NCBI RefSeq assembly: GCF_947488715.1
Contig: NZ_CANLAG010000005.1
Location: 325,950 to 357,949 of the forward strand
DNA from: an uncultured Tateyamaria sp.
GTDB taxonomy: Bacteria > Pseudomonadota > Alphaproteobacteria > Rhodobacterales > Rhodobacteraceae
Direction: 5' to 3'
DNA length: 32,000 nt
Positions 14,101 through 30,957 of this stretch are shown piece after piece. The position numbers and the translations under genes were made by a program. Under the pieces are notes generated by a model. It worked only from the letters and a program-made list of their open reading frames with translations. It made no database searches and had not been told where the DNA came from. Position 1 is the first letter of the stretch; each line of letters opens with the position of its first letter.

Positions 14101-17100
14101 GCAAGAGGCCCGCCTCGCCGCCATTTTTGCCGACGTGTTGGGGCAAAAACGAGTGGGTCCGGATGACAATTTCTTTGCCCTTGGTGGTGATTCCATCACC
14201 AGCCTGCAAATCGTCGCCCGTGCACGGCGCGCTGGGTTTGCCCTGACCGCAGCACAAGTGTTCGAGCATCAGACCGTGGCGGCATTGGCGGCACATGTGA
14301 ATGATCTGCCGACACAGGATGTGGGCGAAACATCGGGGCCGATCCCTGCAACACCAATCATGGCGTGGTTCGCCACCCAGTTCGATCAGCCATGGAAGCA
14401 CTTCAATCAGTCCGTCATGCTTGCCATGCCAGCCGATCTCAACACGGATGCGTTGCGCGCCGCGCTGCAATCGGTCGCTGACGCGCACCCGATCTTTGCG
14501 CTGCGGGTCGACCCGGACGCTGCACAGCCGTTTTCCATATCTGAAACCGCCGAAGCGCCCGCGTTTTTCACGCACACCACCGAAGACGGGCAGGCAGATG
14601 CACTGGACAGGGTGCAGGCCAGTTTAGACCCCACCGAAGGCCGCAACATCGCGGCGCTGTGGTTGCCGCACCAAAACCGGTTGATGGTCACCATCCACCA
14701 TCTGTGCATCGACGTGTTGTCATGGGATGTTTTGTTGCGCGACCTCGAAACGGCCTATGACGCCGCCTGCGCGGAGACCCATACTCAGATCACGCCTGCG
14801 GGCGCCTCATTCCGAACATGGGCAGAGCGATTGAACACCTTTGCTAAGGACAGTGGCGTGTCCGGCACGGTTGCGCATTTCATGCAGAGCCTTGGCGGCG
14901 CGACCGACCCAATCCTTGGTGCGCCCGTTGCGGCAGGACAGGACCGTGACATCACATCCTTCCGACTGACACTGCCAGCGGGCGTTACATCCGACATCCT
15001 GCGGCACGCGGCGGTGGCCTATGAAACGCGGGCGGACGAGGCGCTGTTGGTTGCGCTGCTTATGGCTTTGGACAAACGTGGATCGAGCGGCGTGCGCGTT
15101 GACCTTGAGCGCAATGGCCGCACGTCGCCTTTTGCGGACCTCGACCTCGCTGATACAATTGGTTGGTTCACGAGCGTCATGCCGCTGCGCCTTATGCCTG
15201 GCGACGATGTCGCGGCGCTGGCCCAACAAGTGCGCCGCGCGACGCAGGACAGCCCTCATGACGGTCTGGGTTTTGGCCTTGCGCGCTATTGCGGTACGTC
15301 CGCCACCCGCACGGCGTTGGCCAGTCTGCCGGAGGCGGATGTCCTGTTGAACTACGTGGGCGTCCTGACAGGTTGGGAAGATGCCCCATTTCGACCCGTC
15401 GATGCCCCGTGCGGGACAACCATCGCGCTGGACACAGAACGCAGCCATGTCGTCGAAATCAACGCGGGCGTTGTTGCGGGGCAGATGCGGATCGAAATGA
15501 TTGCACCATCCTCTGCAGGCGCTGAGGCCGAAGGTTTGGCACAGGCTCTGGAAACAGCGATTAGCGATCTGGCGTCTCAGGCGCGGCAGGCGCGGTTTGG
15601 CGCGGACATGGGTGACAACGTCGAGGACGTGGCACCCGCCACCCCATTGCAGCACCGTATCCTGCTGCATTCGATGCGCCGTCCGGACACTTACTTTGAC
15701 CAGTTGCGGTTCACGCTGGACGGCCCCCTCGACGTGGATGCGATGCAGCGATCCTGGGACATGTTGGTGCACAGACATAAATCTTTGCGCACTAATTTCG
15801 GCTTTGCCGGTGATGACAGCCCGCTTCAGATCGTGCGGCAGTCCCTGGATATGCAGTGGCATCATCTGGACTGGCGTGACGTGGCACCAGGCACCATCGC
15901 GCGCCTGTTGACGGATGTCATGCAGGTGGACCGCGCGGTCGGGTTCGACATTGAAAACGGCCCATTGATGCGCATGCATCTGATCCGCCGATCCGACACC
16001 CAGTACGATTGGATTTGGAGCGCGCACCATCTGGTGTTGGACGGATGGTCCGTGTCCGTGGTGATTGAGGAATGGCAGAGCATCTATGCAGCACTGGTGC
16101 GTGGTGACACGCCACAGCTGGCCCCGGCGGCAGACCCTTCGGATTATGCGGCGTGGCTTGGCCAGACGGATAGCGGTGCGGCACGTGCGTTCTGGGCAGA
16201 GCATCTGGCAGGTGCCGAAGCAACCCTGATCGCTAAAGAACAAGACCGAGCCACCGCCGCTGCGACCCAAGCGCCCGGAACAGACCGTATTGACCTGTCG
16301 CCCGAGGTGGAACAGCAGCTTGGCGCGCTGGCCCGTGATCTGGGCACAACCGTTGGCGTAATTGCTCAAGCCGCCTGGGCGCTGGTGCTCCGCCGGTATG
16401 GCCACAGCGGCGCGGTACTGTTTGGTCTGACCGTATCGAACCGGCCGCCTGACATTGCCGGCGCGGATCGCATGGTGGGCATGATGATCAACACGCTGCC
16501 TGTGCGTGTGGATCTGAGTGGTGCGGACACTCCACGGGGGGTGATGGCACGCATGAGCGCACAAGCCCGCGCCCGTGCGCCCTGGTCCGCGCTGTCGCTT
16601 GATAACATTTTGAGCGCGGGCGGGTTTGGCGACACGCTGCCGTTCGACACGATGATGTTGGTTCAAAACTATCCGCAGCCAGAGACCCTGTCCGCCGGGG
16701 ACGTGACCGTTGGGCTGTCAGAAGTCGCAGAACGGACCGATCTGCCGCTGACACTGGTGGTGCAATCAGGTGACGATCCTTGCCTGATGGCCGTGTGGGA
16801 TCGCGACCGGTTGGGCGATGCGCAAGTACAGTCGATGCTGGGTCATTGGCACCGCGTGATGACGGCTTTTCTCGCGGATGCCGATCAAACGCTGGATGGC
16901 ATTTCGATCTACTCAGATGCCGAACTGGCCGCGCGCGTTGAACTGGCACAAGGTTCAAGTGGCGACGCCGAAACGCCACGCGCCGTCGAGGCTGTAGCGC
17001 ATTGGGCGCGCATCCTGCCGGATCAGACCGCGCTGGTTGCCGATGATGGCGTACTGAGTTACCGCGCCCTTGATGCAGCCGTTGCGGCGTTGGCGGCGCG

Positions 17101-20100
17101 ATTGACGGCTCAGGAGGGCTTGCAGCCCGGTGCGTCTGTCGCCGTTCTGCTGCCGCGCTCCACTCGCGCTATTGTCGCGCTGCTCGCTGTGATGCGGGCG
17201 GGCGGTGTGGCCGTTCCGGTCGACGCGGCATATCCGGCGGACCGCATTGCCTATATCTTAGCTGACTGTGGCGCTGAACTGGTGGTCACCCAGACGGGCA
17301 TGGCGCAACCGCTGGACAGCGTGACGGTTGTCCTCTGCGATACGTTGGAGGTGGCCGAGACACCAACTGGCACGGGTGAGCTGCCTGCACCCGACAGCCC
17401 GGCCTATATGATCTACACCTCTGGATCGACGGGCCAGCCCAAGGGCACGTTGACCCACCATGGCGGCGTCGACAACATGATCGCAGCCCAGGCTCTTGCC
17501 TTCAATTTGGGTCCAGCGGACCGCGTGCTCCAGTTTGCTTCGCTGTCGTTTGATGCGTCCGTTTGGGAAATGTTCATGGCATTGGCCGCAGGCGCGGCCC
17601 TCTATGTTCCCACGCGCGAACAGGCGCTGGGTGGCAGGGAATTGGCCGATTACATCGCTGATCATCGCATCACCGCAGCGACATTGCCGCCAACCGTGAT
17701 CGACGGTGTTTCGCCCGAACAGGTGCCGGACCTGTCGCTGCTGGTGGCTGCGGGCGAGGCGTGCCCCCGACACCTGGGGCAGACGTGGGCAAAAGATCGG
17801 CGCTTTTACAACGCTTACGGACCAAGCGAGGCATCGGTTTGTGCCACGCTGCATCAGGTTGAAACGGCAGAGCACACCGTGCCGATCGGTACCGCGATTG
17901 CCGGGGCCGTGGCCTATGCGGTTGATCAGGATGGGCATCTTGTCCCGATGGGCGGCACGGGTGAGTTGGTGATTGGCGGCGCTGGCGTCGGGCTTGGTTA
18001 TCATGGTCGGCCCGAGCTGACGGCCCGCGCCTTTGTGCCGGACAAGTGGCGACAGGATGCGCGCGCCCGTGCGTACCGGACCGGCGACCGTGTTGAGGTC
18101 GGTGCAAATGGCGCGCTTGTGTTCCGTGGGCGGCTTGATCGCCAGATCAAGCTGCGCGGGTTCCGTGTGGAACCGGGCGAGGTTGAGAACGCGTTGATGC
18201 AAGACCCCGCAGTCCACCGAGCGCTGGTCGGGGTGCGGTCTTCTGACGGTATGTCGCGCCTTTTGGCATGGGTCGTGCCTGTGGCCGGTGCGGTGGTGTC
18301 CCCAGATGGCCTGCGCGAGATGCTCGCCCAGCAGCTTCCGGGGCATATGGTCCCGGCATCTGTCGTGGTTGTGGATGACGTTCCATTGACGCCCAATGGC
18401 AAGGTCGATTGGGCCGCGTTGCCGGATGCCTCCGACGATGCGCCCGCTGAACCGGCACCAGTTGTCGAAACCAAGGTTGCCGTAGCACCGCCTGCGGCGG
18501 CTCTTACGACCGAGGAACGCGTGATCCTCAAGCTGACCGAGATCTGGTCAGAGTTGCTGGACGGTCGGTCCGTTGCACCGGACCAGAATTTCTTTGATGC
18601 GGGTGGGCATTCCTTGCTGTTGGTACGTATGCAGCCCATGCTGAAGGAGGCGTTTGGCGTTCAGGTCCGCACGCGGACCTTGTTTGACAACCTTACCATC
18701 TCGGCCCTTGCCACCGTTCTGTGCGACACCGGTGCGCAGGTGCCGGACGATGTGGCCGTCGCAGAACCGGTGCCTGCTGCCGATGAGGGTGTGAAAGCGC
18801 CCGCGATTGGCACCGCGCGGACCGCAGAACCGATTGCCGTTATCGGCATGGCCTGTCGGTTTCCCGGCGCGTCAGACCTCGCTGCCTATTGGGATATGCT
18901 CCGTCGGGGTGACGAAGGGCTGTGTGACTTGACCCGCGCCGACCTTCTTGCCGCAGGTGTCAGCGCGTCTGACGCGGAAAACCCGGCCTATGTCGCGCGA
19001 CGCGGCATCATTGATCACGCGGACAGTTTCGATGCTGCCGCCTTCGGGATTGGACCAAGAGAAGCAGAGTTGATGGACCCTCAACAACGCCTGTTCCTTG
19101 AATGTGTCTGGCACGCGCTTGAGGATGCAGGTCAGCCCCCGCGCAGGGGCCAAAACACGGGCGTGTTTGCCGGGGCAGGCTACAACACCTGGATGAACGA
19201 AGTGCTGCGACCTGCCGGGCATTCCATGGAAGGCTCAGCCGGGTATCATGCCGTAACGGCCAATGAAAAAGACTTCTTGGCCACGCAGACCGCGTTCCGT
19301 CTGGATCTGCGGGGACCGGCAGTGTCGGTTCAAACCGCGTGCTCTACGTCGCTGGTGGCCGTGGTGCAGGCCGTGCAGGCGTTGCGATCAGGCCAGTGCG
19401 AAACCGCTGTCGCCGGAGGGGTGTCCGTCGCCTTTCCGACCCATCGCGGCTATATGTACGAACCGGATATGATCTTGTCGCCGGACGGTCATTGTCGGCC
19501 CTTTGGCGCAGAGGCGGCGGGTACGGTGCCGTCCTCCGGGGTTGGTGCGGTCATCTTGAAACCGTTGGACAAGGCGCAACAGGACGGCGACCGGGTTTAT
19601 GCGGTGATCCGCGGCACCGGGCTGGGCAATGATGGCGCGCGCAAGATGAGCTTTGCCGCGCCGGGCGTCGATGGGCAGGCTGATGCCATGCGCGCGGCTC
19701 TGGACGACGCAGGTCTATTGCCCAGCGATGTGGACGCTATCGAGGCGCACGGCACAGGCACGGCATTGGGTGATCCGGTCGAAATGACGGCCATTGCCCG
19801 CGTTTATGCTGATCGCTCCACGCCGCTGTCCATTGGATCGGTCAAAGGCAACATCGGGCATGCGGATGCCGCTGCGGGCATTGCTGGTTTCATCAAGTCC
19901 GTGCTGGGGCTCTGGCATGGTGAAATGCCGGCCAGTTTGCATGCAGACACTGTGAACGCGCGCCTGGACCTTGCGGATGGTGCGCTGCGGATCGCCAGTG
20001 ACCGTGTCACCTTGGGCCCGCGTGCACGTGCCGGAGTCAGTTCCTTTGGCATCGGTGGCACCAATGCACATGTGGTGTTGGAGCGGGCTGAAACACAACA

Positions 20101-23056
20101 GGATGACGCGATCTGCGGGCCGGAGGAATGGCAAGTGCTGCCGCTCTCTGGGCACTCGAATGATGCGGTCGTAGACGGGGCAAGCGCTCTGTCCGAGCAT
20201 CTCGGGACCAGTGAAGCACCACTTGCGCAGGTGGCTGCGACGCTTCAATCCGGTCGTGCGGCGCTGCATTACAGGACAGCTGTTCTGGCTCAAGACACGC
20301 ACCGAGCTGACGCAGCTCGTGCGTTGGGTGACGTAGCACCCGGCAAGGCCTCACAGGTCGACGCCGCATTTCTGTTTGCAGGGCAGGGCAGCCAACATCT
20401 GGCGATGGGCCGCGCGCTGTACGAACGCTATAAGGCGTACCGCGATGCCATGGATGACATCGACGCGCGGATCACACCGCTGTTGGGGCAATCGCTGCAT
20501 GGGTTGATCATGTCGGGCGATGCGTCGGCGGAACAGACCCTGCGTGACACCCGATACGCGCAACCTGCCGTTTTTGCCGTGTCACTCGCCACCGCGCGTC
20601 TGTGGCAAGCGGTGGGCCTTCAGCCACGTGCCGTACTTGGGCATTCTGTTGGTGAATTTGCAGCGGCGCACATTGCTGGCGTCATGGACCTGGACGAAGC
20701 CCTTCGGCTGATCGTCGCGCGCAGTGCGCTTGTGGCTGAGCAACCCGTGGGCGGCATGCTGGCGACAACGATGTCCGCAGAAGCCGCACAGGCCCACGTC
20801 GGGGATGGCATAGAGATCGCGGCCTACAATGGCCCGCAACAGGTTGTTTTTGCAGGGCCATCCGACCCATTGGATACGCTGCGCGCGACCCTTGATGCGC
20901 AAGGCACGCCTTGCCATCCTCTTGCAACGTCCCATGCGTTTCACTCTGCAATGCTTGCACCCGCCCGCGACGCGTTTCGATCCTGCATCGACACATCCAA
21001 ACTGTCGCCACCGACCGTACCCTTTGCTTCGACGGTCACTGGCGGCTGGGTCGAGGCTCAGGATCTGTTGAGCAGCGACTATTGGGCGGATCACATCTGC
21101 AAACCGGTGCGGTGCGCGCAGGCCATGGCCGCATTGGCGGACAACACAGCGATGGTTGGTCTGGACATGGGGCCGGGCACAACGATGACATCACTGGCCG
21201 CGGCGAACGGGATTGAGTGTCTGCCCAGCCATGATGTGCCAGGCGTTCGCACGGACGACGCGCAACAGCCGCCTGCTGTCCTGTCGACGCTCGCCACACT
21301 CTGGCGCAGAGGTGCCAATGTGAACTGGGACGCCATGCGCAAGGGGCAACCCCGCAAGACGTCGCTGCCCCTGACCCCGTTTGCGCGGACACGGCACACA
21401 CCAACTGTCGCGCCGACCTCGGACTGGCCCGCCAAGCGTGCGGATATGGGTACATGGTTTTATCGTCCCGCGCTGTCCGCCGTGGCAAAGCCAACTGGCG
21501 TCGATTGGGGTGGCAAGGTGCTCGTGGTCACGGATGCGCCCGACGGTGCGGCCGAGACACGTCAGGCGATCCTGTCGCCCGGCACGGACACACAGGTCGT
21601 GGACATCGCACTGACCGCGCCCGATCAAGTTTTGAGCGGGCAGATCGCAGGGTGTCGCCATCTCGTCTTTGTCCTGACCGCTGATTACGGGTCTGACTGG
21701 ACCGTTTTGCAAAGCGTTCTGGCTTGGGTGCGCAGATTTGTGGGCGAGCAGGGTGCGCTGGCGCGGGGTTTGCATTTGGTAACGCATGGCGGCGCGCCCG
21801 TCGGTGACATCGGACCTGTGATCCCGATGCAGTCCGCCATACGCAGTGCATTTGAGGTGTTGGCCGTGGAACATCCGGAGCTTGAGGTGTCCGGAGTGGA
21901 TATTGGCGGCGCTGTGCCAGCATCGCTGGATGTGCCAGCCGCAGGGTTCCTGGTCTGGCATGACGGAGCATATCACGACATCCAACCGACGGCAGCCCAG
22001 ATGCCAACGCCGTCACGAAAGATTCTGCCCAAAGCGCCGCGCATCTTAATCACTGGCGGGTTTGGCGGCGTTGGCCGCGCGCTGGCCTTGGAGTTTGCAG
22101 ACAGCCACCCCGGCGCGACGTTTGTGTTGACCAGCCGCGACGATCAAAGCGAAGCGCCGCTTTTGACCCAACTCCGGGCCAAAGGTGCAACCGCAACGGC
22201 ACTTCAATGCGACCTGAGCGTGTCGGGCGTGCACTTGCCGGTACCTCAAACACCGTTTGATCTGGTGATCCACGCGGCAGGCTGCGCCGACGATGGTGGG
22301 GTCGTTGCGCGCCGCGACGGGCCATCTGTTGCACAGGTTCTGGCCCCGAAAATCGCGGGGCTCGATGCGCTGCAACCTGTTCTGTCGGATCAGACACAGC
22401 TTGTGCTGTGTTCGACGCTGGGATCGTGGATGCCGGACGCAAAATTTGGGCAGGCCGCTTATGCAGCCGCAAACGGTTATCTGGATGGTGCCGCCTTGGC
22501 GCAGTCGCTCGCCGGACGGCGCGTGATTGCGATCAATTGGGACGACTGGGTTGGCGCAGGCATGACCGAAGACACGCGCGCGGCCATGGGACAACCCGCA
22601 ATGACGCCCGATGACGGACTGACGGCCCAAGAGGGGGCGAGTGCGCTGGCCGCCATCGTGTCGGCGCAATGGCCACGCGTGTCCGTGTCGGTGCGCGACT
22701 TGCCGGGTTTGATGCAGGCGGCCAAAGCGCGTTTTGCAAAGGCACCTGATCCGACAGCCGCCGACCCGGCGCAGGTCGTGTCGCCGACGCAGCGCGCCAT
22801 CCCTTCACCCGACGCCATCAGCGTAATTGTACTGGACCTCTTTCGTACCGTGTTGGGGCGCACCGATTTTCAGGACACCGACAACTTTTTTGAACAGGGC
22901 GGCCACTCGCTGATGGCCATGCAAATTCTGATCCGACTGCGCGATGACGTCGGCCTGCCATGCGCCCTTGTCGACATCTTCGAAGCACCAAGCCCCGCAG
23001 AGCTCACGCAAAGACTGATTGCCAAAGCGGGCACGCACACAAAGGACATATCATGA
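11135..23056 (+). CDS. Hybrid NRPS-PKS: TubC-type docking-C-A-PCP-E-C-A-PCP-KS-AT-KR-ACP (3973 aa)
   Basis: N-terminal docking-like segment MRPLSDMLHELAGLGIELEANADKLRIRGPASALGPALREELKARKAELLAHL (11135-11290). C domain HHMISDRQS (11675-11701). A domain CFTSGTTGTAKAV (13025-13060) with A10 LPRTDAGKIDRRAL (14009-). PCP FFALGGDSI (Ser 14192-14194). E domain with PATPIMAWF, HFNQS and HHLCIDVLSW (His-His at 14696-14701). C domain with PLQHRILLHS and HHLVLDGWS (16025-16051). A domain YTSGSTGQPKG (17414-17446) with A10 LTPNGKVDWAAL (18386-). PCP FFDAGGHS (Ser 18611-18613). KS with IAVIGMACRFPGA, TACSTS (Cys 19340-19342), EAHGTGT and GNIGHADAAAG. AT with FAGQGSQ, GHSVGE (Ser 20645-20647) and HAFH (20933-20944). 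KR with TGGFGGVG (22052-22075) and AAYAAANGYLD (Tyr 22460-22462). ACP FFEQGGHS (Ser 22907-22909). Confidence 0.95.
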   Translation: MRPLSDMLHELAGLGIELEANADKLRIRGPASALGPALREELKARKAELLAHLTAPASPVSVPLLPNQRRLWFIDKLTDAATGFALQAAFVLPRQYTVAEWQDALDQLCAHHPVLDTQLIEEGDAPFLQVRPQGPRAEVHVDRLPDDAPDFDALRPTNAGLFRCAVWPRETGQSLVVLSLHHMISDRQSMSTVMQDLLHLLDGQPLTKAGRDFLDIMAQDGSAARPHAAEGLAYWTQTLSDAPADLTLPYDHARPDRRGVQGAVHRFVLSDAANLGPLAQRNNATAFATYLAVYAQLLSQWSGQTDLVIGCPVSGRYMPGTETSVGYFVNTVALRLNLDATDIASVIERARTVVMGAMEHQDVPFDHVVSALSPDRHLNRNPLFQAMFVLQPPSGNAPVFAGEPVDILPAPPLAPDVDISLMLEETAQGYAGYLEYDPDLFDPETIALFAQQFEALCQTYAGNSQTAEQRLAHWQGPDAPRPRGDMWSVLGSALKELPADHLVLEDPDGAVTKSEVLAQANAVAAGLMAQGVGSAAPVGISLARTRDRAAAMLGVWKAGATVVFLPVIGQDKSAQQVFADRVSKGAIGHVICDTASSDDAGTTATLLPFSSFSSVEEISREGLADGPAYLCFTSGTTGTAKAVAVGHDSLINHMMGIAEQFALTPADRVLQFAPTSFDMVFEDMLPALMLGASLIVPEADALADMDRFQAMISDAGITVANLPAPFWHAWVHELDATQTTAPAALRLVITGSDVVHGEAAWVWRSRCPETSLMSGYGLTESTITAMLHTPAADPSDIGLGALPLGVPLPNVAVSVVGPDGEPVPTMVVGEIAISGAAVAMGYVGAQSDHRFRQVGDEPQFMTGDLGRMRRDGHLEFLGRRDQQIKIRGVRVEPSAVEAVVMRLATVSEAAVVPRPSPTGQWGLAAYIVGDQTADHYTEELRHALPGAMVPQTVVTVPALPRTDAGKIDRRALARAPIEITATPTRAPTAQEARLAAIFADVLGQKRVGPDDNFFALGGDSITSLQIVARARRAGFALTAAQVFEHQTVAALAAHVNDLPTQDVGETSGPIPATPIMAWFATQFDQPWKHFNQSVMLAMPADLNTDALRAALQSVADAHPIFALRVDPDAAQPFSISETAEAPAFFTHTTEDGQADALDRVQASLDPTEGRNIAALWLPHQNRLMVTIHHLCIDVLSWDVLLRDLETAYDAACAETHTQITPAGASFRTWAERLNTFAKDSGVSGTVAHFMQSLGGATDPILGAPVAAGQDRDITSFRLTLPAGVTSDILRHAAVAYETRADEALLVALLMALDKRGSSGVRVDLERNGRTSPFADLDLADTIGWFTSVMPLRLMPGDDVAALAQQVRRATQDSPHDGLGFGLARYCGTSATRTALASLPEADVLLNYVGVLTGWEDAPFRPVDAPCGTTIALDTERSHVVEINAGVVAGQMRIEMIAPSSAGAEAEGLAQALETAISDLASQARQARFGADMGDNVEDVAPATPLQHRILLHSMRRPDTYFDQLRFTLDGPLDVDAMQRSWDMLVHRHKSLRTNFGFAGDDSPLQIVRQSLDMQWHHLDWRDVAPGTIARLLTDVMQVDRAVGFDIENGPLMRMHLIRRSDTQYDWIWSAHHLVLDGWSVSVVIEEWQSIYAALVRGDTPQLAPAADPSDYAAWLGQTDSGAARAFWAEHLAGAEATLIAKEQDRATAAATQAPGTDRIDLSPEVEQQLGALARDLGTTVGVIAQAAWALVLRRYGHSGAVLFGLTVSNRPPDIAGADRMVGMMINTLPVRVDLSGADTPRGVMARMSAQARARAPWSALSLDNILSAGGFGDTLPFDTMMLVQNYPQPETLSAGDVTVGLSEVAERTDLPLTLVVQSGDDPCLMAVWDRDRLGDAQVQSMLGHWHRVMTAFLADADQTLDGISIYSDAELAARVELAQGSSGDAETPRAVEAVAHWARILPDQTALVADDGVLSYRALDAAVAALAARLTAQEGLQPGASVAVLLPRSTRAIVALLAVMRAGGVAVPVDAAYPADRIAYILADCGAELVVTQTGMAQPLDSVTVVLCDTLEVAETPTGTGELPAPDSPAYMIYTSGSTGQPKGTLTHHGGVDNMIAAQALAFNLGPADRVLQFASLSFDASVWEMFMALAAGAALYVPTREQALGGRELADYIADHRITAATLPPTVIDGVSPEQVPDLSLLVAAGEACPRHLGQTWAKDRRFYNAYGPSEASVCATLHQVETAEHTVPIGTAIAGAVAYAVDQDGHLVPMGGTGELVIGGAGVGLGYHGRPELTARAFVPDKWRQDARARAYRTGDRVEVGANGALVFRGRLDRQIKLRGFRVEPGEVENALMQDPAVHRALVGVRSSDGMSRLLAWVVPVAGAVVSPDGLREMLAQQLPGHMVPASVVVVDDVPLTPNGKVDWAALPDASDDAPAEPAPVVETKVAVAPPAAALTTEERVILKLTEIWSELLDGRSVAPDQNFFDAGGHSLLLVRMQPMLKEAFGVQVRTRTLFDNLTISALATVLCDTGAQVPDDVAVAEPVPAADEGVKAPAIGTARTAEPIAVIGMACRFPGASDLAAYWDMLRRGDEGLCDLTRADLLAAGVSASDAENPAYVARRGIIDHADSFDAAAFGIGPREAELMDPQQRLFLECVWHALEDAGQPPRRGQNTGVFAGAGYNTWMNEVLRPAGHSMEGSAGYHAVTANEKDFLATQTAFRLDLRGPAVSVQTACSTSLVAVVQAVQALRSGQCETAVAGGVSVAFPTHRGYMYEPDMILSPDGHCRPFGAEAAGTVPSSGVGAVILKPLDKAQQDGDRVYAVIRGTGLGNDGARKMSFAAPGVDGQADAMRAALDDAGLLPSDVDAIEAHGTGTALGDPVEMTAIARVYADRSTPLSIGSVKGNIGHADAAAGIAGFIKSVLGLWHGEMPASLHADTVNARLDLADGALRIASDRVTLGPRARAGVSSFGIGGTNAHVVLERAETQQDDAICGPEEWQVLPLSGHSNDAVVDGASALSEHLGTSEAPLAQVAATLQSGRAALHYRTAVLAQDTHRADAARALGDVAPGKASQVDAAFLFAGQGSQHLAMGRALYERYKAYRDAMDDIDARITPLLGQSLHGLIMSGDASAEQTLRDTRYAQPAVFAVSLATARLWQAVGLQPRAVLGHSVGEFAAAHIAGVMDLDEALRLIVARSALVAEQPVGGMLATTMSAEAAQAHVGDGIEIAAYNGPQQVVFAGPSDPLDTLRATLDAQGTPCHPLATSHAFHSAMLAPARDAFRSCIDTSKLSPPTVPFASTVTGGWVEAQDLLSSDYWADHICKPVRCAQAMAALADNTAMVGLDMGPGTTMTSLAAANGIECLPSHDVPGVRTDDAQQPPAVLSTLATLWRRGANVNWDAMRKGQPRKTSLPLTPFARTRHTPTVAPTSDWPAKRADMGTWFYRPALSAVAKPTGVDWGGKVLVVTDAPDGAAETRQAILSPGTDTQVVDIALTAPDQVLSGQIAGCRHLVFVLTADYGSDWTVLQSVLAWVRRFVGEQGALARGLHLVTHGGAPVGDIGPVIPMQSAIRSAFEVLAVEHPELEVSGVDIGGAVPASLDVPAAGFLVWHDGAYHDIQPTAAQMPTPSRKILPKAPRILITGGFGGVGRALALEFADSHPGATFVLTSRDDQSEAPLLTQLRAKGATATALQCDLSVSGVHLPVPQTPFDLVIHAAGCADDGGVVARRDGPSVAQVLAPKIAGLDALQPVLSDQTQLVLCSTLGSWMPDAKFGQAAYAAANGYLDGAALAQSLAGRRVIAINWDDWVGAGMTEDTRAAMGQPAMTPDDGLTAQEGASALAAIVSAQWPRVSVSVRDLPGLMQAAKARFAKAPDPTAADPAQVVSPTQRAIPSPDAISVIVLDLFRTVLGRTDFQDTDNFFEQGGHSLMAMQILIRLRDDVGLPCALVDIFEAPSPAELTQRLIAKAGTHTKDIS

Positions 23057-24669
23057 CCGACACCACAGAACTGTTTTGCCTGCGCCCGGATGTGGTTGTC
23101 GAACCCGTTGTGGCGGGGTGGTATGCGACCACGCAACTGGTGTCGCCACTGGCACATGCCATGAACACCGCCTTTCGCCATCTGCCCATCATGCAGAGCT
23201 ATATCCAAAGCCCGCAAATGCATGCCGCGGCGGTGCAAGACCCCGACTTGTTGGGCGGGCCTTTCATCGACCACCCTGCGGAGCGTGCCTCTGACGTGGT
23301 TGATCTGTTGGAAAGCACCCGAGGCGCGCAGCAGGACCATCTGAAACTGGCCGATGCCGTGCGGACAGCGTGGGAAACTCTGCAAAACCGTGCGGCTGGC
23401 GGCAGCATGGCGGATATCTACGCTGCCATGCCGGACGACCTGCGCGGGTTTCTAGAGCTGGTGTACACGCCCGGAGGCACGCCGGATTTGCGGGTGTTCG
23501 AGGCGCTGTTGTACCGAAGCGCGCATTACACGCCGCATTTGCAGGGTGCCTTGATCCACCGGATTTCTGGTGACGAACGTCCGTTTTCCATGTCCACGCC
23601 GCGCTTTCCCAGCCCGGACAAATTCGCGCTGAACCGACCATTTTCGGACAAGGCCTATGATGTGCTGGGACGTTTACGCCGCGAACCGATGTCACGTGCG
23701 GATATCGCCAGCGCGCTGCAACTGAACGATGCGGAGGCGGCGGCGTTTGACGCATTCCTCACACCGGCCTCACCGCGTGCGCCGGTTGAGGTCGCGACAC
23801 AAAGCAGATGGCGGTATTTCGGGCACGCCTGCGTTCTGGTCGAGTCGGCAGGTGGGCGGTCGGTCTTGGTCGATCCCGTGATTGCCTACGAATCCGGTGA
23901 CGCCCCGGAACGCTACACCATCGACGATCTGCCTGATTTCATTGATGTGGTGTTGATCACGCACAATCACCCTGATCACGTGCTGATCGAAACGCTTTTG
24001 GCGTTGCGGTGGAAGATCGGCACCATTCTGGTCGCGCGCAGCGGCGGCAGCATGGTGGACCCATCGCTCAAATCTGCCCTGACGGCGATCGGGTTCGCAG
24101 ATGTCCGCGAGGTCGACTATCTTGAGGCGGTCCAGGTGGGCGACGTGTCTATTCAGGCGCTGCCCTTTCTCGGGGAACACGCAGACCTCGACATCAGTTG
24201 CAAGGCGGCTTGGTTGGTTGATGCAGGCATGCGCATGGTGTTTGCGGCGGATTCCAACAATCTGGACCCAGTGCTGTACGACCGCCTGGCCACCTCGATT
24301 GGCCGCCTGGACGCGCTGTTTCTGGGCATGGAATGTGAAGGTGCACCGATGTCCTGGCTATACGGCGCGATGTTGCCCTTTGCGGTGGACCGGGCCGACG
24401 ATCAGGAACGGCGGCTTGATGGATCCAACGCAACTCGTGCGCGCGCACTGATCGAAAGCCTCGATGTGGATCAGGTCTATATCTACGCGATGGGGCTGGA
24501 GCCGTGGCTCAAGTTCATCACCGGCATGGCCCCCGAGGACGACAGCACACCGATGCAACAGTCCGAAGAGCTGCTTGCTCAGTGCAGACAGGTCGGAATG
24601 CAGGCGCAGCGCCTCTATGGGCGTGCCACCAGCGAGGATGCTGTCGAAACGGTCGAGTTCGACCTTTAG
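23053..24669 (+). CDS. Two-domain metallo-beta-lactamase-fold protein; candidate CmlA-like non-heme diiron beta-hydroxylase (alternative: hydrolytic off-loading enzyme)
   Basis: ATG 23053 overlaps the ORF3 stop (ATGA). The longer ORF from 22960 would overlap the ACP in another frame. The 538-aa protein has an N-terminal domain of about 250 aa with no motif I recognise. The C-terminal MBL fold has RYFGHACVLVE..VLVDP and HxHxDH = THNHPDH (23962-23979), plus downstream candidate metal ligands GEHAD, FAAD and GMECEG. The size and domain order match the CmlA type, and the gene sits directly against an NRPS. The CDS call is solid and the function is inferred. Confidence 0.7.
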   Translation: MTDTTELFCLRPDVVVEPVVAGWYATTQLVSPLAHAMNTAFRHLPIMQSYIQSPQMHAAAVQDPDLLGGPFIDHPAERASDVVDLLESTRGAQQDHLKLADAVRTAWETLQNRAAGGSMADIYAAMPDDLRGFLELVYTPGGTPDLRVFEALLYRSAHYTPHLQGALIHRISGDERPFSMSTPRFPSPDKFALNRPFSDKAYDVLGRLRREPMSRADIASALQLNDAEAAAFDAFLTPASPRAPVEVATQSRWRYFGHACVLVESAGGRSVLVDPVIAYESGDAPERYTIDDLPDFIDVVLITHNHPDHVLIETLLALRWKIGTILVARSGGSMVDPSLKSALTAIGFADVREVDYLEAVQVGDVSIQALPFLGEHADLDISCKAAWLVDAGMRMVFAADSNNLDPVLYDRLATSIGRLDALFLGMECEGAPMSWLYGAMLPFAVDRADDQERRLDGSNATRARALIESLDVDQVYIYAMGLEPWLKFITGMAPEDDSTPMQQSEELLAQCRQVGMQAQRLYGRATSEDAVETVEFDL

Positions 24670-24807
24670 GCCCTGCGCCTGACGGGGACTTGATGCAAAC
24701 GTGATTGGGACGTGAGCCACTGGCTGTGCAAGGTGCTGGCTATATGTCTGCGCCTGGCCTTGGGCTTTGCGGTGGCATCTGACAACACGCTGCCGAAAGG
24801 GTCCGTC

Positions 24808-26187
24808 ATGGCACTCGCCAACTCCATCAAAACCCGACTGCTTGCGCCACTTCTGGCGGTTTCGCTTGTGTGCGCCTGCGCGCTGCACGCGCAGAGCACC
24901 GAACCGTTGCCCGACTACGTGATCGAGGAGTTTGGACAACCCCCGGCAGTGCCAACCGGGCCGCTTGCCCCCGAGATGCAATTTGCGGTGCGCGTGGCCT
25001 TTGTGGACAGTGTGGCGCTGTCGACGTGGGACGAAAATCAGACCCTCGCGCTGGCCGAGATTGCAAAGTCCGAAGACCCGCGATTGGTGTGGTTGATCAG
25101 TGATATGATGCGCTTTGTCCCCTCGCGTCAGTTGCACGATGCGCTGTCAAATGCCGCCGCGGAGCTTTTGGGCAAACCCTTTGAAACCGGCAACAGCTGG
25201 GGCGTCGTGACCGACCACCTCTTGGCCTGGGACATTCCGGCGCCGCCCGACTACCTCAAGGTCAAGCGCACGATTTTCACAGGCATTGTCCCCGGATGGG
25301 AGCAGATATTCGTAGAAGGGGACATCGACTGGCGGTTGGTGTCCTGGGGTGGGGTTCTCATTGATGACCGGCCCTATGACACCACGGACAACGGGTGCAA
25401 TTGCATCCCCGCCGCCGATAACCCGGATGTGACCAGCGCCGAGGACGCCGCGTGGCTCAAGGACGATGACATCGTGTTCGGCATCGAGGTCAACGGCGAA
25501 TACCGCGCCTATCCCCGCCGCATCATGGAAGTGCGTGAAATGGTGAATGACACGCTGGGCGGGCGTGATCTGGGCATCCCGTACTGTACGCTTTGTGGTG
25601 CGGCGCAGGCCTATTTCACCGATGAACTGCCCGTTGGTATCGAGCGCCCGATCCTGCGCACCTCGGGCCTGCTGAGCCGTTCGAACAAGGTGATGTACGA
25701 CATCAACACCTATTCGGTCTTTGACACATTTCTGGGCCATGCAGTCACCGGGCCGCTTGCGGAAAAGAACCTGCAACTCAAGCAAGCGACTGTGATCACG
25801 ACCGATTGGGGCACGTGGAAACGCGAACACCCCGAGACCACCGTTTTGCTGGAACGCTATGCGCTGGGCCGTGACCCCGATTTCCGCAATGGCCGTGATG
25901 CCGATGGCCCGATCTTTCCCGTTGGGGATGTCGACCCGCGGCTTTCGGTCCATGAGGACATCATAGGGGCCATCACAGCGTCAGGCACACCTGTGGCCTT
26001 TCCCCGCTCGGCTGCGTTTGTGGCCCTGAAACGCGGGGACGACGTGACGTTCGAGAACGTGCGCCTCGAACTGGACGCAGGTGGCATACGCGCGGTCGAT
26101 GCGGATGGCAGCGACCTTGGCAGCCACCAGGCTTTCTGGTTCGCCTGGTCGCAGTTCCATCCGCAAACCGCATTGTGGATGCGGTAA
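24808..26187 (+). CDS. Secreted DUF3179-family protein
   Basis: ATG 24808 is preferred over GTG 24712. It follows AAAGGG by about 8 nt and yields a signal peptide, MALANSIKTRLLAPLLAVSLVCACALHA/QS. The C-terminal half matches the DUF3179 pattern: IPAADNP...VFGIEVNGEYRAYPRRIM..VNDTLGGRDLGIPYCTLCGAAQAYF...TSGLLSRSNKVMYD..T.S.F....G.AVTGPL....L......TDWGTWKREHPETTVL. Confidence 0.75.
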   Translation: MALANSIKTRLLAPLLAVSLVCACALHAQSTEPLPDYVIEEFGQPPAVPTGPLAPEMQFAVRVAFVDSVALSTWDENQTLALAEIAKSEDPRLVWLISDMMRFVPSRQLHDALSNAAAELLGKPFETGNSWGVVTDHLLAWDIPAPPDYLKVKRTIFTGIVPGWEQIFVEGDIDWRLVSWGGVLIDDRPYDTTDNGCNCIPAADNPDVTSAEDAAWLKDDDIVFGIEVNGEYRAYPRRIMEVREMVNDTLGGRDLGIPYCTLCGAAQAYFTDELPVGIERPILRTSGLLSRSNKVMYDINTYSVFDTFLGHAVTGPLAEKNLQLKQATVITTDWGTWKREHPETTVLLERYALGRDPDFRNGRDADGPIFPVGDVDPRLSVHEDIIGAITASGTPVAFPRSAAFVALKRGDDVTFENVRLELDAGGIRAVDADGSDLGSHQAFWFAWSQFHPQTALWMR

Positions 26188-26199
26188 GACGCAAGCCGC

Positions 26200-29037
26200 T
26201 CAATCGTCGGCATAGTCCTCCATCGGTGGGCAGGTGCAGGACAGGTTCCTGTCGCCCCATACATTGTCCACGCGGTTCACGGGTGGCCAGTATTTGTCCA
26301 CGCGGAACGAGCCGGGGGGAAAGCATCCACTTTCCCGGCTGTAGGGCCGGTCCCAGTCGCGGACGAGATCTTCCATCGTGTGCGGTGCGTTTCTAAGCGG
26401 GTTGTTTTCCGCATCCATGTCGCCGTCTTCGATGGCCTTGATCTCGGCGCGGATGCCCAGCATCGCGTCGCAGAAGCGGTCCAGCTCGGCCTTGGTTTCG
26501 GATTCGGTGGGCTCAATCATCAATGTGCCCGCCACGGGCCACGACATGGTAGGCGCGTGAAACCCGCAATCGGCCAACCGTTTGGCGATGTCGTCCACCG
26601 AGATGTGGGCGCTCTCCATGAACGGGCGGGTGTCGATGATACACTCGTGCGCCACGCGGCCCGTGGGTCCTTTGTAGAGCACATCAAACGCACCTTCGAG
26701 GCGTTTGGCGATGTAGTTCGCATTCAGGATCGCCACACGTGTGGCCTGGGTCAGGCCTTCGCCGCCCATCATCAGGCAATAGGCCCAAGAGATCGGAAGC
26801 AGCGAGGGTGAGCCAAAGGCCGCAGCACTGACCGCACCCTCACCGCCATTTGGATCGCCCGGCAGGTGCGGCGTCAGATGCGCCTTGACCCCAATCGGCC
26901 CCATGCCCGGACCACCGCCGCCGTGGGGGATGCAAAAGGTCTTGTGCAGGTTGAGGTGACTGACATCGCCGCCCAAGTCGCCAGGACGGCTCAGGCCAAC
27001 CATGGCATTCATGTTGGCACCGTCGATGTAGACTTGGCCGCCTGCCTCATGGGTCATGCGGCACACGTCGATCACTGTTTCCTCGAACACGCCGTGGGTC
27101 GAGGGATAGGTGATCATGCACCCGGCCAGATTGTCCCCGTGTTCGGCGACCTTGGCCTTGAAGTCGTCCAGATCAATGTCGCCGTTGTCGGCGGATTTCA
27201 CCGGGACAACCTTCCATCCAACCATTTGCGCAGAGGCCGGGTTGGTGCCATGCGCGCTCATCGGGATCAGGCAGATGTTGCGGTGTCCTTGACCATTGGC
27301 ACGGTGAAACGACGCGATGGTCAGCAACCCGGCATATTCCCCCTGCGCACCCGAATTGGGCTGCATGGAAATGGCGTCATATCCCGTCACATCGCAAAGC
27401 TTAGATGACAGATCGTCAATCATCTCTGCATAGCCCGCGGCCTGATCGGTCGGGCAATAGGGGTGCAGCAGCGAAAACTCGCGCCAACTGACCGGCATCA
27501 TTTCAGCCGCTGAATTCAGCTTCATCGTGCAGGAGCCAAGCGGGATCATCGCCCGGTCCAACGCCAGGTCACGATCCGCCAAACGCCGCATGTACCGCAT
27601 CATTTCCGTTTCGGCGCGATTCATGTGGAAAATCGGATGCGTCATGAAATCCGAGGTGCGGATCAGCTTGTCCGGGATGTTGTAATGCGGGGTATAGTCC
27701 TTGTCCTGCCGTTCGATGCCAAAGGCACGCCACACACATTCGATGGTCGCGGGCCGCGTGCGTTCATCCAGAGTAATGCCGATGGCGGTGGTGCCCACAG
27801 CGCGCAGGTTGATGCCCTCGTCCACGGCAGATTTGATCACAGCCGATTGCAGGGGGCCTACGTCGACGGTGATCGTATCGAAAAAGGTCGCAGGCCGTAC
27901 ATCGAAACCCGCCTGCCGCAATCCTTCGGCCAGACGCGCGGTCTTGCGGTGAATGCGTTGTGCGATGGCCCGCAAGCCGTCTGGACCGTGAAACACACCG
28001 TAAAAGCCCGCCATGACAGCCAAGAGGGCCTGTGCGGTGCAGACGTTCGATGTCGCCTTTTCCCTCCGAATGTGTTGTTCGCGGGTTTGCAGGGAAAGGC
28101 GGTAGGCGCGGTTGCCATGGCTGTCGATGGACACGCCGACAATGCGCCCCGGCATGTTGCGGGCATAGTTTGCCTTGGTCGCCATGTAGGCCGCATGCGG
28201 GCCGCCATACCCAATCGGCACACCAAAACGCTGTGTGCTGCCGACGGCAATGTCCGCACCCATCGCGCCCGGCTCTTTGAGCAGGGTCAACGACAGCGGA
28301 TCGGCAGAGATTACGCCAATGGCCTTGTGTTCATGCAGTTTCGCGATGTCGTCGGTGAAATCCCGGATGTGCCCGTAGGTGCCGGGATACTGGAAAATAG
28401 CGCCAAACACCGCCGCCGGGTCCAAATCGTCGGGCGCGCCGACGATGATCTCGATGCCCAAAGGCTGCGCGCGGGTCTTGATGACCGCAATGTTCTGCGG
28501 GTGGCAGTTTTCGTCGACAAAAAAACCGGTGGCTTTGGATTTGCTGATCCGCTGCGCCATGGTCATCGCCTCCGCGCAGGCGGTGGCCTCGTCCAGAAGG
28601 GATGCGTTGGCGATGTCCAGACCGGTCAGGTCCGACACCATGGTCTGAAAGTTCAGCAATGCCTCAAGCCTGCCCTGGCTGATCTCGGGCTGGTATGGCG
28701 TGTAGGCCGTATACCAGGCCGGATTTTCCAGGATGTTGCGCTGGATCGCGGGGGGCGTGACGGTGCCGTGATACCCTTGCCCGATCAGCGATGTCAGCAC
28801 CTGGTTCTTGGACGCGGTCACCCGCATGTGGTGCAACAGTTCGCGTTCCGACATGGCCTTGCCAAAATCCAGCGGCTCTTTCTGCCGGATGTTGGCCGGG
28901 ATCGTGTCGTCGATCAGTGCATCAAGGTCGTTCGCACCCACCACTTGCAACATCTCGTCCATCTCGGCCGGAGACGGCCCGATATGCCGACGGTTTGCAA
29001 AATCATAGGGGAGATAGTCGGTGGGTTTGAATGTCAC
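26200..29037 (-). CDS. gcvP: Glycine dehydrogenase (decarboxylating), glycine cleavage system P protein
   Basis: 945-aa ORF with a GTG start at 29037, preceded by AGGACCAGGACC. The sequence is full-length GcvP-like ([22 protein letters not shown]..., [27 protein letters not shown], the PLP-Lys region [18 protein letters not shown]) and lies in the gcvTHP gene order. Confidence 0.97.
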
Positions 29038-29049
29038 GGTCCTGGTCCT

Positions 29050-29409
29050 TTAGCCGATCAATGCGGTGTAAGCGGTTTCGTCCAGCAACGCGTCGAGCTG
29101 CGATGGGTCGGACGGCTTGATCTTGAAAAACCAGCCCTCGTCCAAGGGCGCGCTGTTGGCCAGGCTGGGGTCGTCAGCGAGGGCGGTGTTGACCTCTGTG
29201 ATCTCGCCATCAACCGGAGCCATGATGTCGGATGCGGCCTTGACGCTTTCGATGACGACGATCTCGTCGTTTTTGCTGACTTCGGTGCCAACCTCTGGCA
29301 ATTCGACAAAAACCAGGTCACCCAGCTGCGTCGTCGCATGTTCGGTGATGCCCACAACATAGACATCGCCCTCGGCGCGCAGCCATTCGTGTTCTTCGGT
29401 GTATTTCAT
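29050..29409 (-). CDS. gcvH: Glycine cleavage system H protein (lipoyl carrier)
   Basis: Start ATG 29409 ([25 protein letters not shown]) is preceded by AGAGAGGA, and the 29430 start would overlap gcvT. The lipoyl-lysine motif is [10 protein letters not shown]. The product is 119 aa. Confidence 0.95.
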
Positions 29410-29426
29410 CTGTGGTCCTCTCTGTG

Positions 29427-30551
29427 TCATCTCTTGAAGTTGGCGGGGGTAAAGGGTGTTTTGGCGACGGTCAGTGGTTGGCGTTTTCCGCGCAGTTCCC
29501 CAAAAACGACGGTGTCGGGTGTGGCATAGCGCGTTTCGACGTAGCCCATGGCAACGGGGCCGCCGACGGTTGGGCCGAACCCGCCGGATGTGATTGCGCC
29601 AATGGGTTCGCTGGCTGTTTCATCGGCGAACAGAACAACGCCCTCGCGCATGGGGGCGCGGCCTTGGGGCAGCAGCCCCACACGTTTGCGTGCTGCGCCG
29701 CTGTCTAGTTCTTCAAGGATGGTGGCCGCACCCGGAAATCCCCCGGCACGTGCGCCACCGGTGCGCCGCACTTTTTGAATCGCCCAGCTCAATGCCGCTT
29801 CGGTAGGGGACGTTCCGGCATCGATGTCATGCCCATACAGGCACAACCCAGCCTCAAGGCGCAGCGAGTCCCGCGCCCCAAGACCAATCGCCTCGACCTG
29901 TGGCAGCGCGAGCAATGCACGCGCCAGATCCTCCGCCACTTCCGAAGGGACCGAAATTTCGTAACCGTCTTCGCCGGTGTAGCCCGACCGCGAGATCCAT
30001 GCCTCTGCCCCGTTCAGGTCCACTGTGGCCACATCCATAAATGACATCCTCGCCACATCCGGGTTCAGCGTGGCAAGGGCCTCTTCCGCAGCCGGGCCTT
30101 GCAAGGCCAGCAATGCGCGGTCTGTCACCTCGGCCACAGTCAGGCCCGGTTCCAGCGCAGCCTTCAGCTTGGCGATATCCGTATGTTTGCACGCGGCATT
30201 TACCCCGAGGAACACGTGGTCGCCGCGGTTTGCCAGCATCAGATCATCCTCGATGCCTCCGGCGGCGTTTGTCAGAAAGCCATACCGCTGTCGGTTCTGC
30301 CCGAGGCTCAGAATGTCGACCGGGATCAGCGTTTCCAACCCCGCAGCGATATCCGCATAGCCGGGCCCGCGCACAACAACCTGGCCCATGTGGCTGACGT
30401 CGAACAATCCAGCATACGTACGTGTATGTTGATGTTCCTTCATCACGCCCAATGGGTACTGCACGGGCATCTCGTACCCGGCAAAGGGCACCATCTTGGC
30501 ACCCAATGACAGGTGCAGTGCATGCAAGGGGGTCTGTTTCAGGTCGGTCAT
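29427..30551 (-). CDS. gcvT: Aminomethyltransferase, glycine cleavage system T protein
   Basis: Start ATG 30551 ([32 protein letters not shown]) matches typical GcvT N-termini. The TTG 30596 extension runs into the riboswitch expression platform. The product is 374 aa, and the gene is followed by gcvH and gcvP. Confidence 0.95.
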
Positions 30552-30644
30552 GCCGTGCGCGCCTTTTGCAAGCCGACATGATTCCTGGCAAATCAATCGG
30601 CACCATCACATGCGCAGGACGGGTCCCGCGCGTTGGTGCCTCCT

Positions 30645-30790
30645 CTGTCCTATGTGCCTGAGATCATTATCCCTTCGGCGGGTGCATCTGCACCACTCTC
30701 CAGAGTATTGGTGGCGTGCCATTGGTCCTTGGGCCTGAGAGTTTCCGAGGCAGTTGCTCCTTCGGCACCAGCGAACTGGTTCTCCCAACG
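30645..30790 (-). promoter_or_regulatory. Tandem glycine riboswitch (two aptamers) in the gcvT leader
   Basis: The minus-strand RNA reads as follows. Aptamer 1 (30788->30724): GGGAGAaccaguucgcugguGCCGAAGGAGCAAcugccucggaaaCUCUCAGGCccaaGGACC. Aptamer 2 (30706->30645): CUCUGGAGAGuggugcagaugCACCCGCCGAAGGGAUAAugaucuCAGGCacauaGGACAG. Both carry the conserved GGAGA / CCGAAGG / CUCAGGC / GGAC cores of the glycine aptamer, and the element sits upstream of gcvT as expected. Confidence 0.9.
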
Positions 30791-30871
30791 TCACGCATGT
30801 CTGTTTCGTATCGGAAACGCGCGGCGCGTGGCAAGACATTTGTGACGACGCCTGATCACAAGTTTCAAAGG

Positions 30872-30917
30872 CCGCAAAACAGAACCACCACCAGATGCCT
30901 TTGCATGTGGTGGTGGT
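30872..30917 (-). terminator. Putative rho-independent terminator downstream of the peroxiredoxin-like gene
   Basis: A perfect 10-bp stem, ACCACCACCA (30884-30893) pairing with TGGTGGTGGT (30908-30917), encloses a 14-nt loop. On the minus strand the hairpin is followed by UCUGUUUUG. It lies 40 nt after the stop at 30958 and before the gcvT promoter and riboswitch. Confidence 0.45.
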
Positions 30918-30957
30918 CCAATTTTCATGCGTCAGCCCTATTGGGCGCGTTCTGAAG

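Follow-up and report, generated by a model that had tools for sequence, protein, structure and literature searches.

A CmlA/FrsH-family diiron monooxygenase gene coupled to a thioesterase-less NRPS-PKS operon in Tateyamaria, and its probable phenylalanine substrate

The 32,000-nucleotide (nt) stretch of DNA considered here (the window; contig NZ_CANLAG010000005.1, positions 325,950 to 357,949 of the forward strand) is from an uncultured Tateyamaria sp., a marine member of the Roseobacteraceae, in agreement with the alphaproteobacterial host given in an earlier note on this DNA. At 23053-24669 (+, stop codon included) it carries a gene for a 538-amino acid (aa) protein that translates with zero internal stops and that, by its open reading frame (ORF), profile and structure matches, belongs to the CmlA/FrsH family of non-heme diiron monooxygenases (NHDMs). 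The gene stands immediately behind ORF3 (11135-23056), which encodes a 3973-aa hybrid of nonribosomal peptide synthetase (NRPS) and polyketide synthase (PKS). Its ATG at 23053-23055 overlaps the TGA of ORF3 at 23054-23056 in the tetranucleotide ATGA, and a Shine-Dalgarno-like AAGGA at 23042-23046 precedes the ATG with a 6-nt spacer, the whole forming an apparent translational-coupling junction (23042-23056, +) with an overlap that recurs in relatives. The earlier description of a 538-aa protein coupled to the end of a megasynthase was thus correct, and the ATGA overlap would keep the hydroxylase and its partner synthetase co-expressed. An alternative in-frame ATG at 22960 would give a protein of 569 aa, but the alignments with homologues, CmlA and FrsH all begin near residue 8 of the 538-aa form and so support 23053 as the start.

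Two domains make up the protein. Residues 10-237 (23080-23763, +) match Pfam PF18456, CmlA_N, with E=1.1e-70 (238 bits, the cutoff being 25), a family described in Pfam as "diiron non-heme beta-hydroxylase N-terminal domain", and align with the corresponding domains of CmlA and FrsH; the approximately 250 N-terminal residues that were earlier called unassigned are therefore accounted for. The catalytic domain, from aa 254 to about aa 526 (23812-24630, +), has the metallo-beta-lactamase (MBL) fold that the earlier note had proposed for the C-terminal half, with the Pfam models Lactamase_B_2, _3 and _B covering aa 254-424 and the alignment to CmlA and FrsH extending to aa 526. In phmmer searches of the PDB sequences, FrsH (8a90) matched aa 9-526 with E=5.5e-117 and CmlA (4jo0) matched aa 8-526 with E=1.1e-106 (5kik and 5kil, E≈1e-106), followed by unrelated MBL proteins at E>1e-3; the protein is 39% identical to FrsH and 39% identical to CmlA. 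An AlphaFold2 model from an alignment of 52 homologues, having a mean predicted local distance difference test score (pLDDT) of 90.7 and a predicted template modelling score (pTM) of 0.92, was compared with known structures using Foldseek, where FrsH 8a90 was the top match with a template modelling score (TM) of 0.92-0.94 and a root-mean-square deviation of 1.9 A, and CmlA (4jo0, 5kik) matched with TM 0.89-0.92. Hydrolytic MBL proteins reached at best a TMq of about 0.3 at 12-16% identity, and NCBIfam hydrolase models scored far under their cutoff (26.5 versus 144 bits). The alignment to CmlA and the AlphaFold/Foldseek comparison that had been suggested for this protein hence agree, the profile and pairwise homology running across both domains and the top structural matches, FrsH and CmlA, lying at TM of about 0.90-0.94.

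The ligand set can be read from the same alignments. The HxHxDH motif, H304-N-H306-P-D308-H309 (23962-23979, +), provides four predicted diiron ligands corresponding to H305, H307, D309 and H310 in the CmlA numbering assumed here, and is invariant in the 52 homologues. The remaining three are carboxylates: E375 (24175-24177, +), which aligns with CmlA E377 at MBL motif 3; D400 (24250-24252, +), which aligns with D403 at motif 4; and E427 (24331-24333, +), which aligns with E430 at motif 5, motifs 3 and 5 having histidine in hydrolases. All seven CmlA ligands and their FrsH equivalents are therefore matched by H304, H306, D308, H309, E375, D400 and E427, and the seven are invariant across the homologues (44-90% identity). 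The presence of Glu rather than His at motifs 3 and 5 indicates a carboxylate-rich, oxygenase-type site and not that of a zinc hydrolase, and a 3-His/4-carboxylate diiron site as in CmlA is predicted, probably holding iron rather than zinc. The motifs singled out in the earlier note, GEHAD (374-378), FAAD (397-400) and GMECEG (425-430), are present as quoted, and the extra carboxylates that they contain proved conserved. THNHPDH is also present, but its numbering as 304-309 was off by one, the motif occupying aa 303-309 and HNHPDH aa 304-309. The combination that had been named as contrary to a CmlA-like enzyme, no N-terminal homology together with a zinc-hydrolase ligand set, is absent in both of its parts.

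By architecture, full-length homology, ligands, fold and NRPS adjacency, the 538-aa protein is a clear, ordinary member of the CmlA/FrsH family of NHDMs, and an InterPro or Pfam scan alone is enough to place it there. The public record with the identical 538-aa sequence is named 'MBL fold metallo-hydrolase [uncultured Tateyamaria sp.]' at NCBI; such annotations ("MBL fold metallo-hydrolase" or "UlaG") are too vague, and the CmlA/FrsH assignment is nevertheless confident. The Tateyamaria gene adds a member to a known family, one that is small and has been little studied, and does not overturn the current understanding of it.

The likely substrate is suggested by the synthetase to which the gene is coupled. 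ORF3 (+) encodes, in order, a TubC_N docking domain, condensation (C), adenylation (A, code DMENIGGITK), peptidyl carrier protein (PCP), epimerization (E), C, A (Phe), PCP, ketosynthase (KS), acyltransferase (AT), ketoreductase (KR) and acyl carrier protein (ACP) domains, as assigned by Pfam and motifs, with no thioesterase (TE) domain. The A domain of its last NRPS module (ORF3 aa 1956-2423; 17000-18403, +) has the specificity code DAWTVAAVCK, a canonical Phe code. The Stachelhaus codes were read off by alignment to a GrsA reference sequence, presumed correct because it reproduced DAWTIAAICK at the canonical positions. The PCP of the same module (aa 2466-2528; 18530-18718, +), with Ser2493 in GGHSL, would be the substrate carrier and docking partner of the hydroxylase, whose gene lies 4.6 kb downstream of this Phe-code A-PCP pair in the ATGA-coupled arrangement. 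Two A domains with aromatic-type codes had been claimed earlier; a single one, the fourth (A4, DAWTVAAVCK), was confirmed.

The association with Phe extends to relatives of the gene. In 80 genome loci of relatives (numbered with the prefix L), A, C, KS and AT domains were located and the A codes extracted, and a neighbour-joining tree of the hydroxylases was made with CmlA and FrsH among the sequences. In this tree the query belongs to a proteobacterial clade together with L001 (Tateyamaria sp. SN3-11, 87% identity), L002-L005 (Rhodospirillaceae, Oceanibaculum and Rhodospirillum, 58-59% identity), L006, L007, and L015, L030 and L055 (Oxalobacteraceae and Delftia). The A domain nearest to the hydroxylase gene has the code DAWT[V/A/F]AAV[C/A] in each of these ten closest-clade loci, and FrsH groups in the other large clade, where the neighbouring codes are aliphatic (DALWLGGTF and DAFFFGVTF, for example). 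Beyond the Phe module the loci differ, L001-L005 continuing with KS-AT-KR-ACP and L015 and L030 ending in a C domain. Since the Phe module and not the PKS end travels with the subclade, we take Phe-S-PCP of ORF3 module 5, carried on Ser2493, to be the probable substrate. The Tyr-like or Phe-like substrate of the earlier note may accordingly be narrowed to Phe on the strength of the A4 code and the clade-wide association, and its CmlA-like diiron beta-hydroxylase acting on a carrier-bound aromatic residue gains support from homology, the predicted ligands and the modelled fold.

Work on characterized systems is consistent with such an activity. FrsH hydroxylates Leu bound to a thiolation (T) domain, prior to N-acylation (PMC7794379), and HynC hydroxylates T-bound Tyr and Leu, the characterized NHDMs giving syn products (PMC8252469). 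In the chitinopeptin cluster, (2S,3R)-3-OH-Phe has been paired with an MBL-fold gene (PMC9248904). The biochemically described members of the family comprise only CmlA, a teicoplanin-cluster enzyme, FrsH and HynC (PMC7794379, PMC8252469); a search of the literature found no assayed enzyme for the Phe substrate class, nor any described product that could be linked to this cluster family.

Taken together, the Tateyamaria protein is most likely a non-heme diiron monooxygenase that beta-hydroxylates L-Phe while it is carried by the PCP of the final ORF3 NRPS module. If it works as CmlA, FrsH and HynC do, a reduced diiron cluster would activate O2 only with the aminoacyl-S-PCP docked, and the beta-carbon of the tethered L-Phe would be hydroxylated ahead of its acylation by the upstream C domain. 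The resulting beta-hydroxy-Phe would then be condensed onto a peptide predicted to consist of an alpha-hydroxyacyl starter, a beta-Ala-like residue, an unassigned A2 residue and a D-configured basic-type residue, after which malonate extension and reduction by the terminal KS-AT-KR-ACP would give a C-terminal 4-amino-3,5-dihydroxy-5-phenylpentanoyl-S-ACP.

Several points weigh against beta-hydroxylation of PCP-bound Phe as the function. The metal identity and the activity, both of the 538-aa protein and of its Phe-associated subclade, are extrapolated from homologues, and the presumed PCP target is assigned by A-domain code and comparative association. The window encodes no reductase or ferredoxin partner. 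In a sister clade of the hydroxylase (described below) an adjacent NRPS is lacking, so that family membership alone does not guarantee a PCP-tethered substrate. Finally, the CmlA ligand numbering (H305/H307/D309/H310/E377/D403/E430) is presumed to be that of Makris et al. 2013. Read on the 4jo0 chain at a uniform offset of +2, all seven numbers do give H/H/D/H/E/D/E, and the title of PDB 5kil, 'CmlA E377D mutant', agrees with E377.

The manner of product release bears on two of the alternatives. The terminal ACP of ORF3 (aa 3899-3961; 22829-23017, +) has Ser3925 in GGHSL and the protein ends 12 residues later, leaving no TE, as had been noted for the megasynthase, which ends in KR-ACP. Pfam scans of the inter-domain gaps of ORF1-ORF3 and of the other ORFs in the window found no TE, and neither a thioesterase (PF00975) nor an alpha/beta-hydrolase gene was found in the window or in the 10 kb upstream in the source genome. 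The TE-less PKS terminus is kept in L001-L005 and L083. A stand-alone PF00975 type II thioesterase is encoded in L081, between Band_7 and the ORF1 homologue, of a cluster (L081/L083) that has the same PKS end as the window and a hydroxylase 74% identical to the query; another is found in the Delftia cluster L030, and in Sulfitobacter-type relatives there is an adjoining second synthetase ending C-A-PCP-TE. Given related clusters with stand-alone type II thioesterases, release need not involve the hydroxylase, and where functions for release or editing are visible in the cluster family they are evidently separate ones. In Tateyamaria, release may depend on a function encoded elsewhere or may be non-enzymatic. 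The earlier statement that no other release function is present therefore stands within the window but is weakened by the sister clusters.

A hydroxylase could still contribute to release indirectly. The beta-hydroxyl that it installs would become the C5 hydroxyl after extension and could attack the ACP thioester, off-loading a delta-lactone without a TE; six-membered lactonization of 5-hydroxy thioesters is chemically facile, the KR and ACP of ORF3 appear active from their YAAAN and GGHSL motifs, and the TE-less KS-AT-KR-ACP end with adjoining hydroxylase is conserved in L001-L005, L083 and the window. If this were so, the hydroxylase would decide release, the chain leaving as a 4-acylamino-3-hydroxy-5-phenyl-delta-lactone, and the ATGA weld to the ACP end in at least five alphaproteobacterial genomes would be explained. 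The idea is a deduction rather than a direct observation, however, and it is unlikely: in L081/L083 a type II thioesterase is encoded alongside a PKS end of this kind, some hydrolase acting in trans could be encoded at another place in the genome, and the relatives in Betaproteobacteria finish with a C domain instead (joined in Delftia by a type II thioesterase), which shows the conserved role of the enzyme to be independent of release chemistry.

Alternatively, the enzyme may be a diiron beta-hydroxylase with a different carrier-bound target, be it a residue loaded by a different module of ORF2 or ORF3, residues on two or more modules, or the extended chain on the ACP. HynC serves two modules, Tyr and Leu (PMC8252469), family members accept p-aminophenylalanine, Tyr and Leu (PMC7794379, PMC8252469), the A2 and A3 codes (DVSQAGAVTK and DMENIGGITK) allow no confident assignment, and the gene abuts the ACP end rather than the Phe PCP. 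We consider this quite unlikely, as the Phe-code A domain is the sole feature that co-varies with the subclade across Alpha- and Betaproteobacteria, and as the enzyme is retained in L006, L007, L015 and L030 though the PKS module is absent there.

The competing suggestion of the earlier note, that the protein is an MBL-type thioesterase or hydrolase freeing the ACP-bound chain in the manner of the MBL-type thioesterases (MBL-TEs) of fungal non-reducing PKSs, received no support and is very improbable. It would fit the translational coupling of the gene to the ACP-encoding end, the end of ORF3 in an ACP with no TE, the lack of a PF00975 or alpha/beta-hydrolase gene in the regions searched, and the name 'MBL fold metallo-hydrolase' at NCBI, but it conflicts with the His-to-Glu changes at motifs 3 and 5 (E375, E427) within a 3-His/4-carboxylate CmlA set, and with a two-domain CmlA/FrsH fold to which hydrolytic MBL proteins are scarcely comparable (the TMq of about 0.3 given above). 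In addition, the enzyme stands beside a Phe module even where there is no PKS/ACP end (L006, L007, L015, L030), separate PF00975 thioesterases occur in L081 and L030, and hydrolase activity is not reported for the family in PMC7794379 or PMC8252469. A different diiron oxidation of the tethered residue, such as desaturation to dehydro-Phe or N-oxygenation, is barely plausible, for although diiron enzymes are chemically versatile and the Phe-associated subclade is not yet characterized, the protein shares its ligand set and fold with CmlA and FrsH, and every characterized member of the two-domain family is a beta-hydroxylase (PMC7794379, PMC8252469).

The remainder of the assembly line is encoded by ORF1 (1012-4881, +), an A-KR-PCP loading module assigned from Pfam domains and homologues, and ORF2 (4878-11138, +), which from Pfam domains and codes reads C-A(VDTVVSLGDK)-PCP-C-A(DVSQAGAVTK)-PCP. 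The HHxxxD motif is present in every C and E domain of ORF2-ORF3, the KS retains its active-site Cys and two His, the AT motifs GHSVG and HAFH indicate malonyl specificity, the KR has its Rossmann motif as well as YAAAN, and all six carrier domains have their Ser. The code of the first A domain of ORF2 (A1, VDTVVSLGDK) is beta-Ala-like, its Asp being shifted to position 236 as in domains that activate beta-amino acids such as beta-Ala; that of the second (A2, DVSQAGAVTK) is unassigned; and that of the first in ORF3 (A3, DMENIGGITK), which an E domain follows, has an acidic pocket residue and is basic-amino-acid-like. No confident assignment of specificity was obtained from the codes of A0, A2 and A3, the A0-GrsA alignment being poor around position 235. 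The ORF1 loader has about 190 N-terminal residues without domain assignment and no Asp235, and its starter is probably an alpha-keto acid that is reduced to an alpha-hydroxy acid. ORF3 aa 1056-1500 was considered as an interface domain that might recruit the hydroxylase and was rejected, this region being an ordinary E domain (HHLCID, GWFTS, GLGFG, LNYVG) preceded by a PCP with GGDSI. The loci L006, L007, L015, L030 and L055 (Rhodospirillaceae, Polaromonas, Oxalobacteraceae, Delftia) have an Orn-like A domain and, further on, a Phe A-PCP and hydroxylase without KS-AT-KR-ACP, as if, in assembly lines that are otherwise related, the module at the release end had been swapped.

The junction between synthetase and hydroxylase genes is an ATGA overlap in L002-L005 and an ATGnnTGA overlap in L015, L030 and L055. 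In L001, from the closest cultured relative, 122 nt separate the NRPS-PKS stop from the hydroxylase start (L001 9877-10001), and the cluster lies in a different neighbourhood, with FA_hydroxylase, LysR and MFS genes downstream, which suggests that it is mobile within the genus Tateyamaria. The genes 3' of the hydroxylase differ from genome to genome among the relatives compared, and the DUF3179 gene found next in the window has no counterpart in the 80 loci, which leaves the hydroxylase gene as the operon's last conserved member (L001, L002, L004, L083). This DUF3179 gene (24712-26187, +; 491 aa, domain at aa 230-464, E=1.8e-57) starts 43 nt past the hydroxylase stop on the same strand, with no convincing terminator between them. 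It was considered as a cluster member or release factor and rejected, being absent from all 80 related loci including that of Tateyamaria sp. SN3-11 (tblastn, E<1e-10), and is probably a flanking gene. Beyond it, a glycine cleavage operon (26200-30596, -; gcvT 29427-30596, gcvH 29050-29430, gcvP 26200-29037) is core metabolism and marks the downstream edge of the cluster, and a 156-aa ORF (30606-31076, -) has no Pfam or NCBIfam match.

On the other side, the cluster begins upstream of the window, as indicated by a Band_7 gene, its 3' part occupying window 1-996 (+) and ending 16 nt before ORF1. The upstream region of the source genome was traced through the ORF1 protein on contig CANMYF010000044.1 of GCA_947502035.1, and encodes an Sfp-type phosphopantetheinyl transferase (PPTase), a DUF697 protein, a 56-aa ORF, an ABC ATPase and the Band_7 protein. 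This set is found likewise in L085, L086 and L088, and in rearranged order downstream of the hydroxylase in Oxalobacteraceae and Delftia; by this recurrence the set is part of the cluster family. DUF697, ABC ATPase/transporter and Band_7/SPFH genes travel with the NRPS family in Alpha- and Betaproteobacteria, to which Tateyamaria-type clusters add the Sfp-type PPTase (window 1-996, +; L087 5649-9982; L081 3652-7901; L015 12112-16001; L030 11736-16800). Just upstream of the PPTase in the source genome, at L087 2269-5494, are ergothioneine-type genes, one EgtB-like (DinB_2 and FGE-sulfatase), one EgtD-like (Methyltransf_33) and one for a second FGE-sulfatase protein, which are probably unrelated to the cluster. 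In contigs of Sulfitobacter-type metagenome-assembled genomes (MAGs; L089 1-8806, L090 1-5682), the ORF1-ORF2-ORF3 operon is divergent from the second large synthetase, which has A, KS, AT, carrier, aminotransferase and other domains before its C-A-PCP-TE end and may represent a combined or a neighbouring lipopeptide cluster.

The sister clade mentioned above consists of CmlA_N plus MBL proteins 46-51% identical to the query. It comes from freshwater bacteria of the Burkholderiaceae and Alcaligenaceae, represented by Zwartia and MAGs, and its genes have no NRPS A or C domain as a direct neighbour (L008, L014, L017, L019, L021, L023, L024, L026-L028 and L036, L024 being on the 1.35-Mb chromosome OZ248472.1). 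The gene order conserved there runs from an OmpR-type response regulator gene through the CmlA-like gene to Cupin_8/JmjC-like and PhyH dioxygenase genes in convergent orientation; some of the loci also have, on the opposite strand and at a distance of 4-5 kb, an A domain with a Gly code. The substrate in this clade may not be PCP-tethered in the usual way.

What is mildly new in the Tateyamaria system is the uncharacterized, Phe-paired subclade, the Roseobacteraceae host, and a residue, presumably hydroxylated, that would be fed into a terminal, TE-less PKS module. The gene also marks an orphan yet widespread NRPS(-PKS) cluster family common to Roseobacteraceae, Rhodospirillales and Burkholderiales, having as its conserved set an A-KR-PCP loader, DUF697, an ABC ATPase/transporter and a Band_7 protein, with a type II TE in some. 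The predicted statine-like terminus derived from beta-hydroxy-Phe may guide product discovery, and the enzyme is a candidate Phe beta-hydroxylase for biocatalysis and a natural test case for release from TE-less PKS termini.

Among known systems, FrsH of FR900359 biosynthesis in Chromobacterium vaccinii (8a90) is the closest in sequence and in structure, having the same CmlA_N plus MBL architecture and the same seven ligands, and, as is proposed for the query, it works in trans on an L-amino acid held on an NRPS carrier domain, before this residue is N-acylated. It differs in its Leu substrate and in belonging to the aliphatic-code clade, the query being in a separate, Phe-code proteobacterial clade, and the frs NRPSs end in TE domains whereas the Tateyamaria assembly line ends in an ACP. 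CmlA of chloramphenicol biosynthesis in Streptomyces venezuelae (4jo0, 5kik, 5kil), the founding member, shares its ligands with the query and acts on an aromatic amino acid on a PCP, although this is L-p-aminophenylalanine on the single-module NRPS CmlP of an actinomycete. For the query the substrate is likely plain Phe, on a six-module NRPS-PKS of a member of the Roseobacteraceae, and the hydroxylated residue would be extended by a PKS module. By their descriptions, HynC (hypeptin), which beta-hydroxylates T-bound Tyr or Leu, and the teicoplanin-cluster hydroxylase, presumably Tcp25, are NHDMs like the query, and the putative MBL-fold hydroxylase of chitinopeptin has, as here, a proposed Phe substrate, giving (2S,3R)-3-OH-Phe; these systems differ in making cyclic (lipo)depsipeptides or glycopeptides that are released by a TE. 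The fungal MBL-TEs of non-reducing PKSs (ACTE/AptB-type) have one domain only, are about 300 aa long and carry the His-rich ligand set of Zn/Mn hydrolases, and resemble the query in the MBL fold, in HxHxDH and in standing beside a TE-less synthase, from which the Tateyamaria protein is set apart by its extra 240-aa CmlA_N domain and by Glu at motifs 3 and 5.

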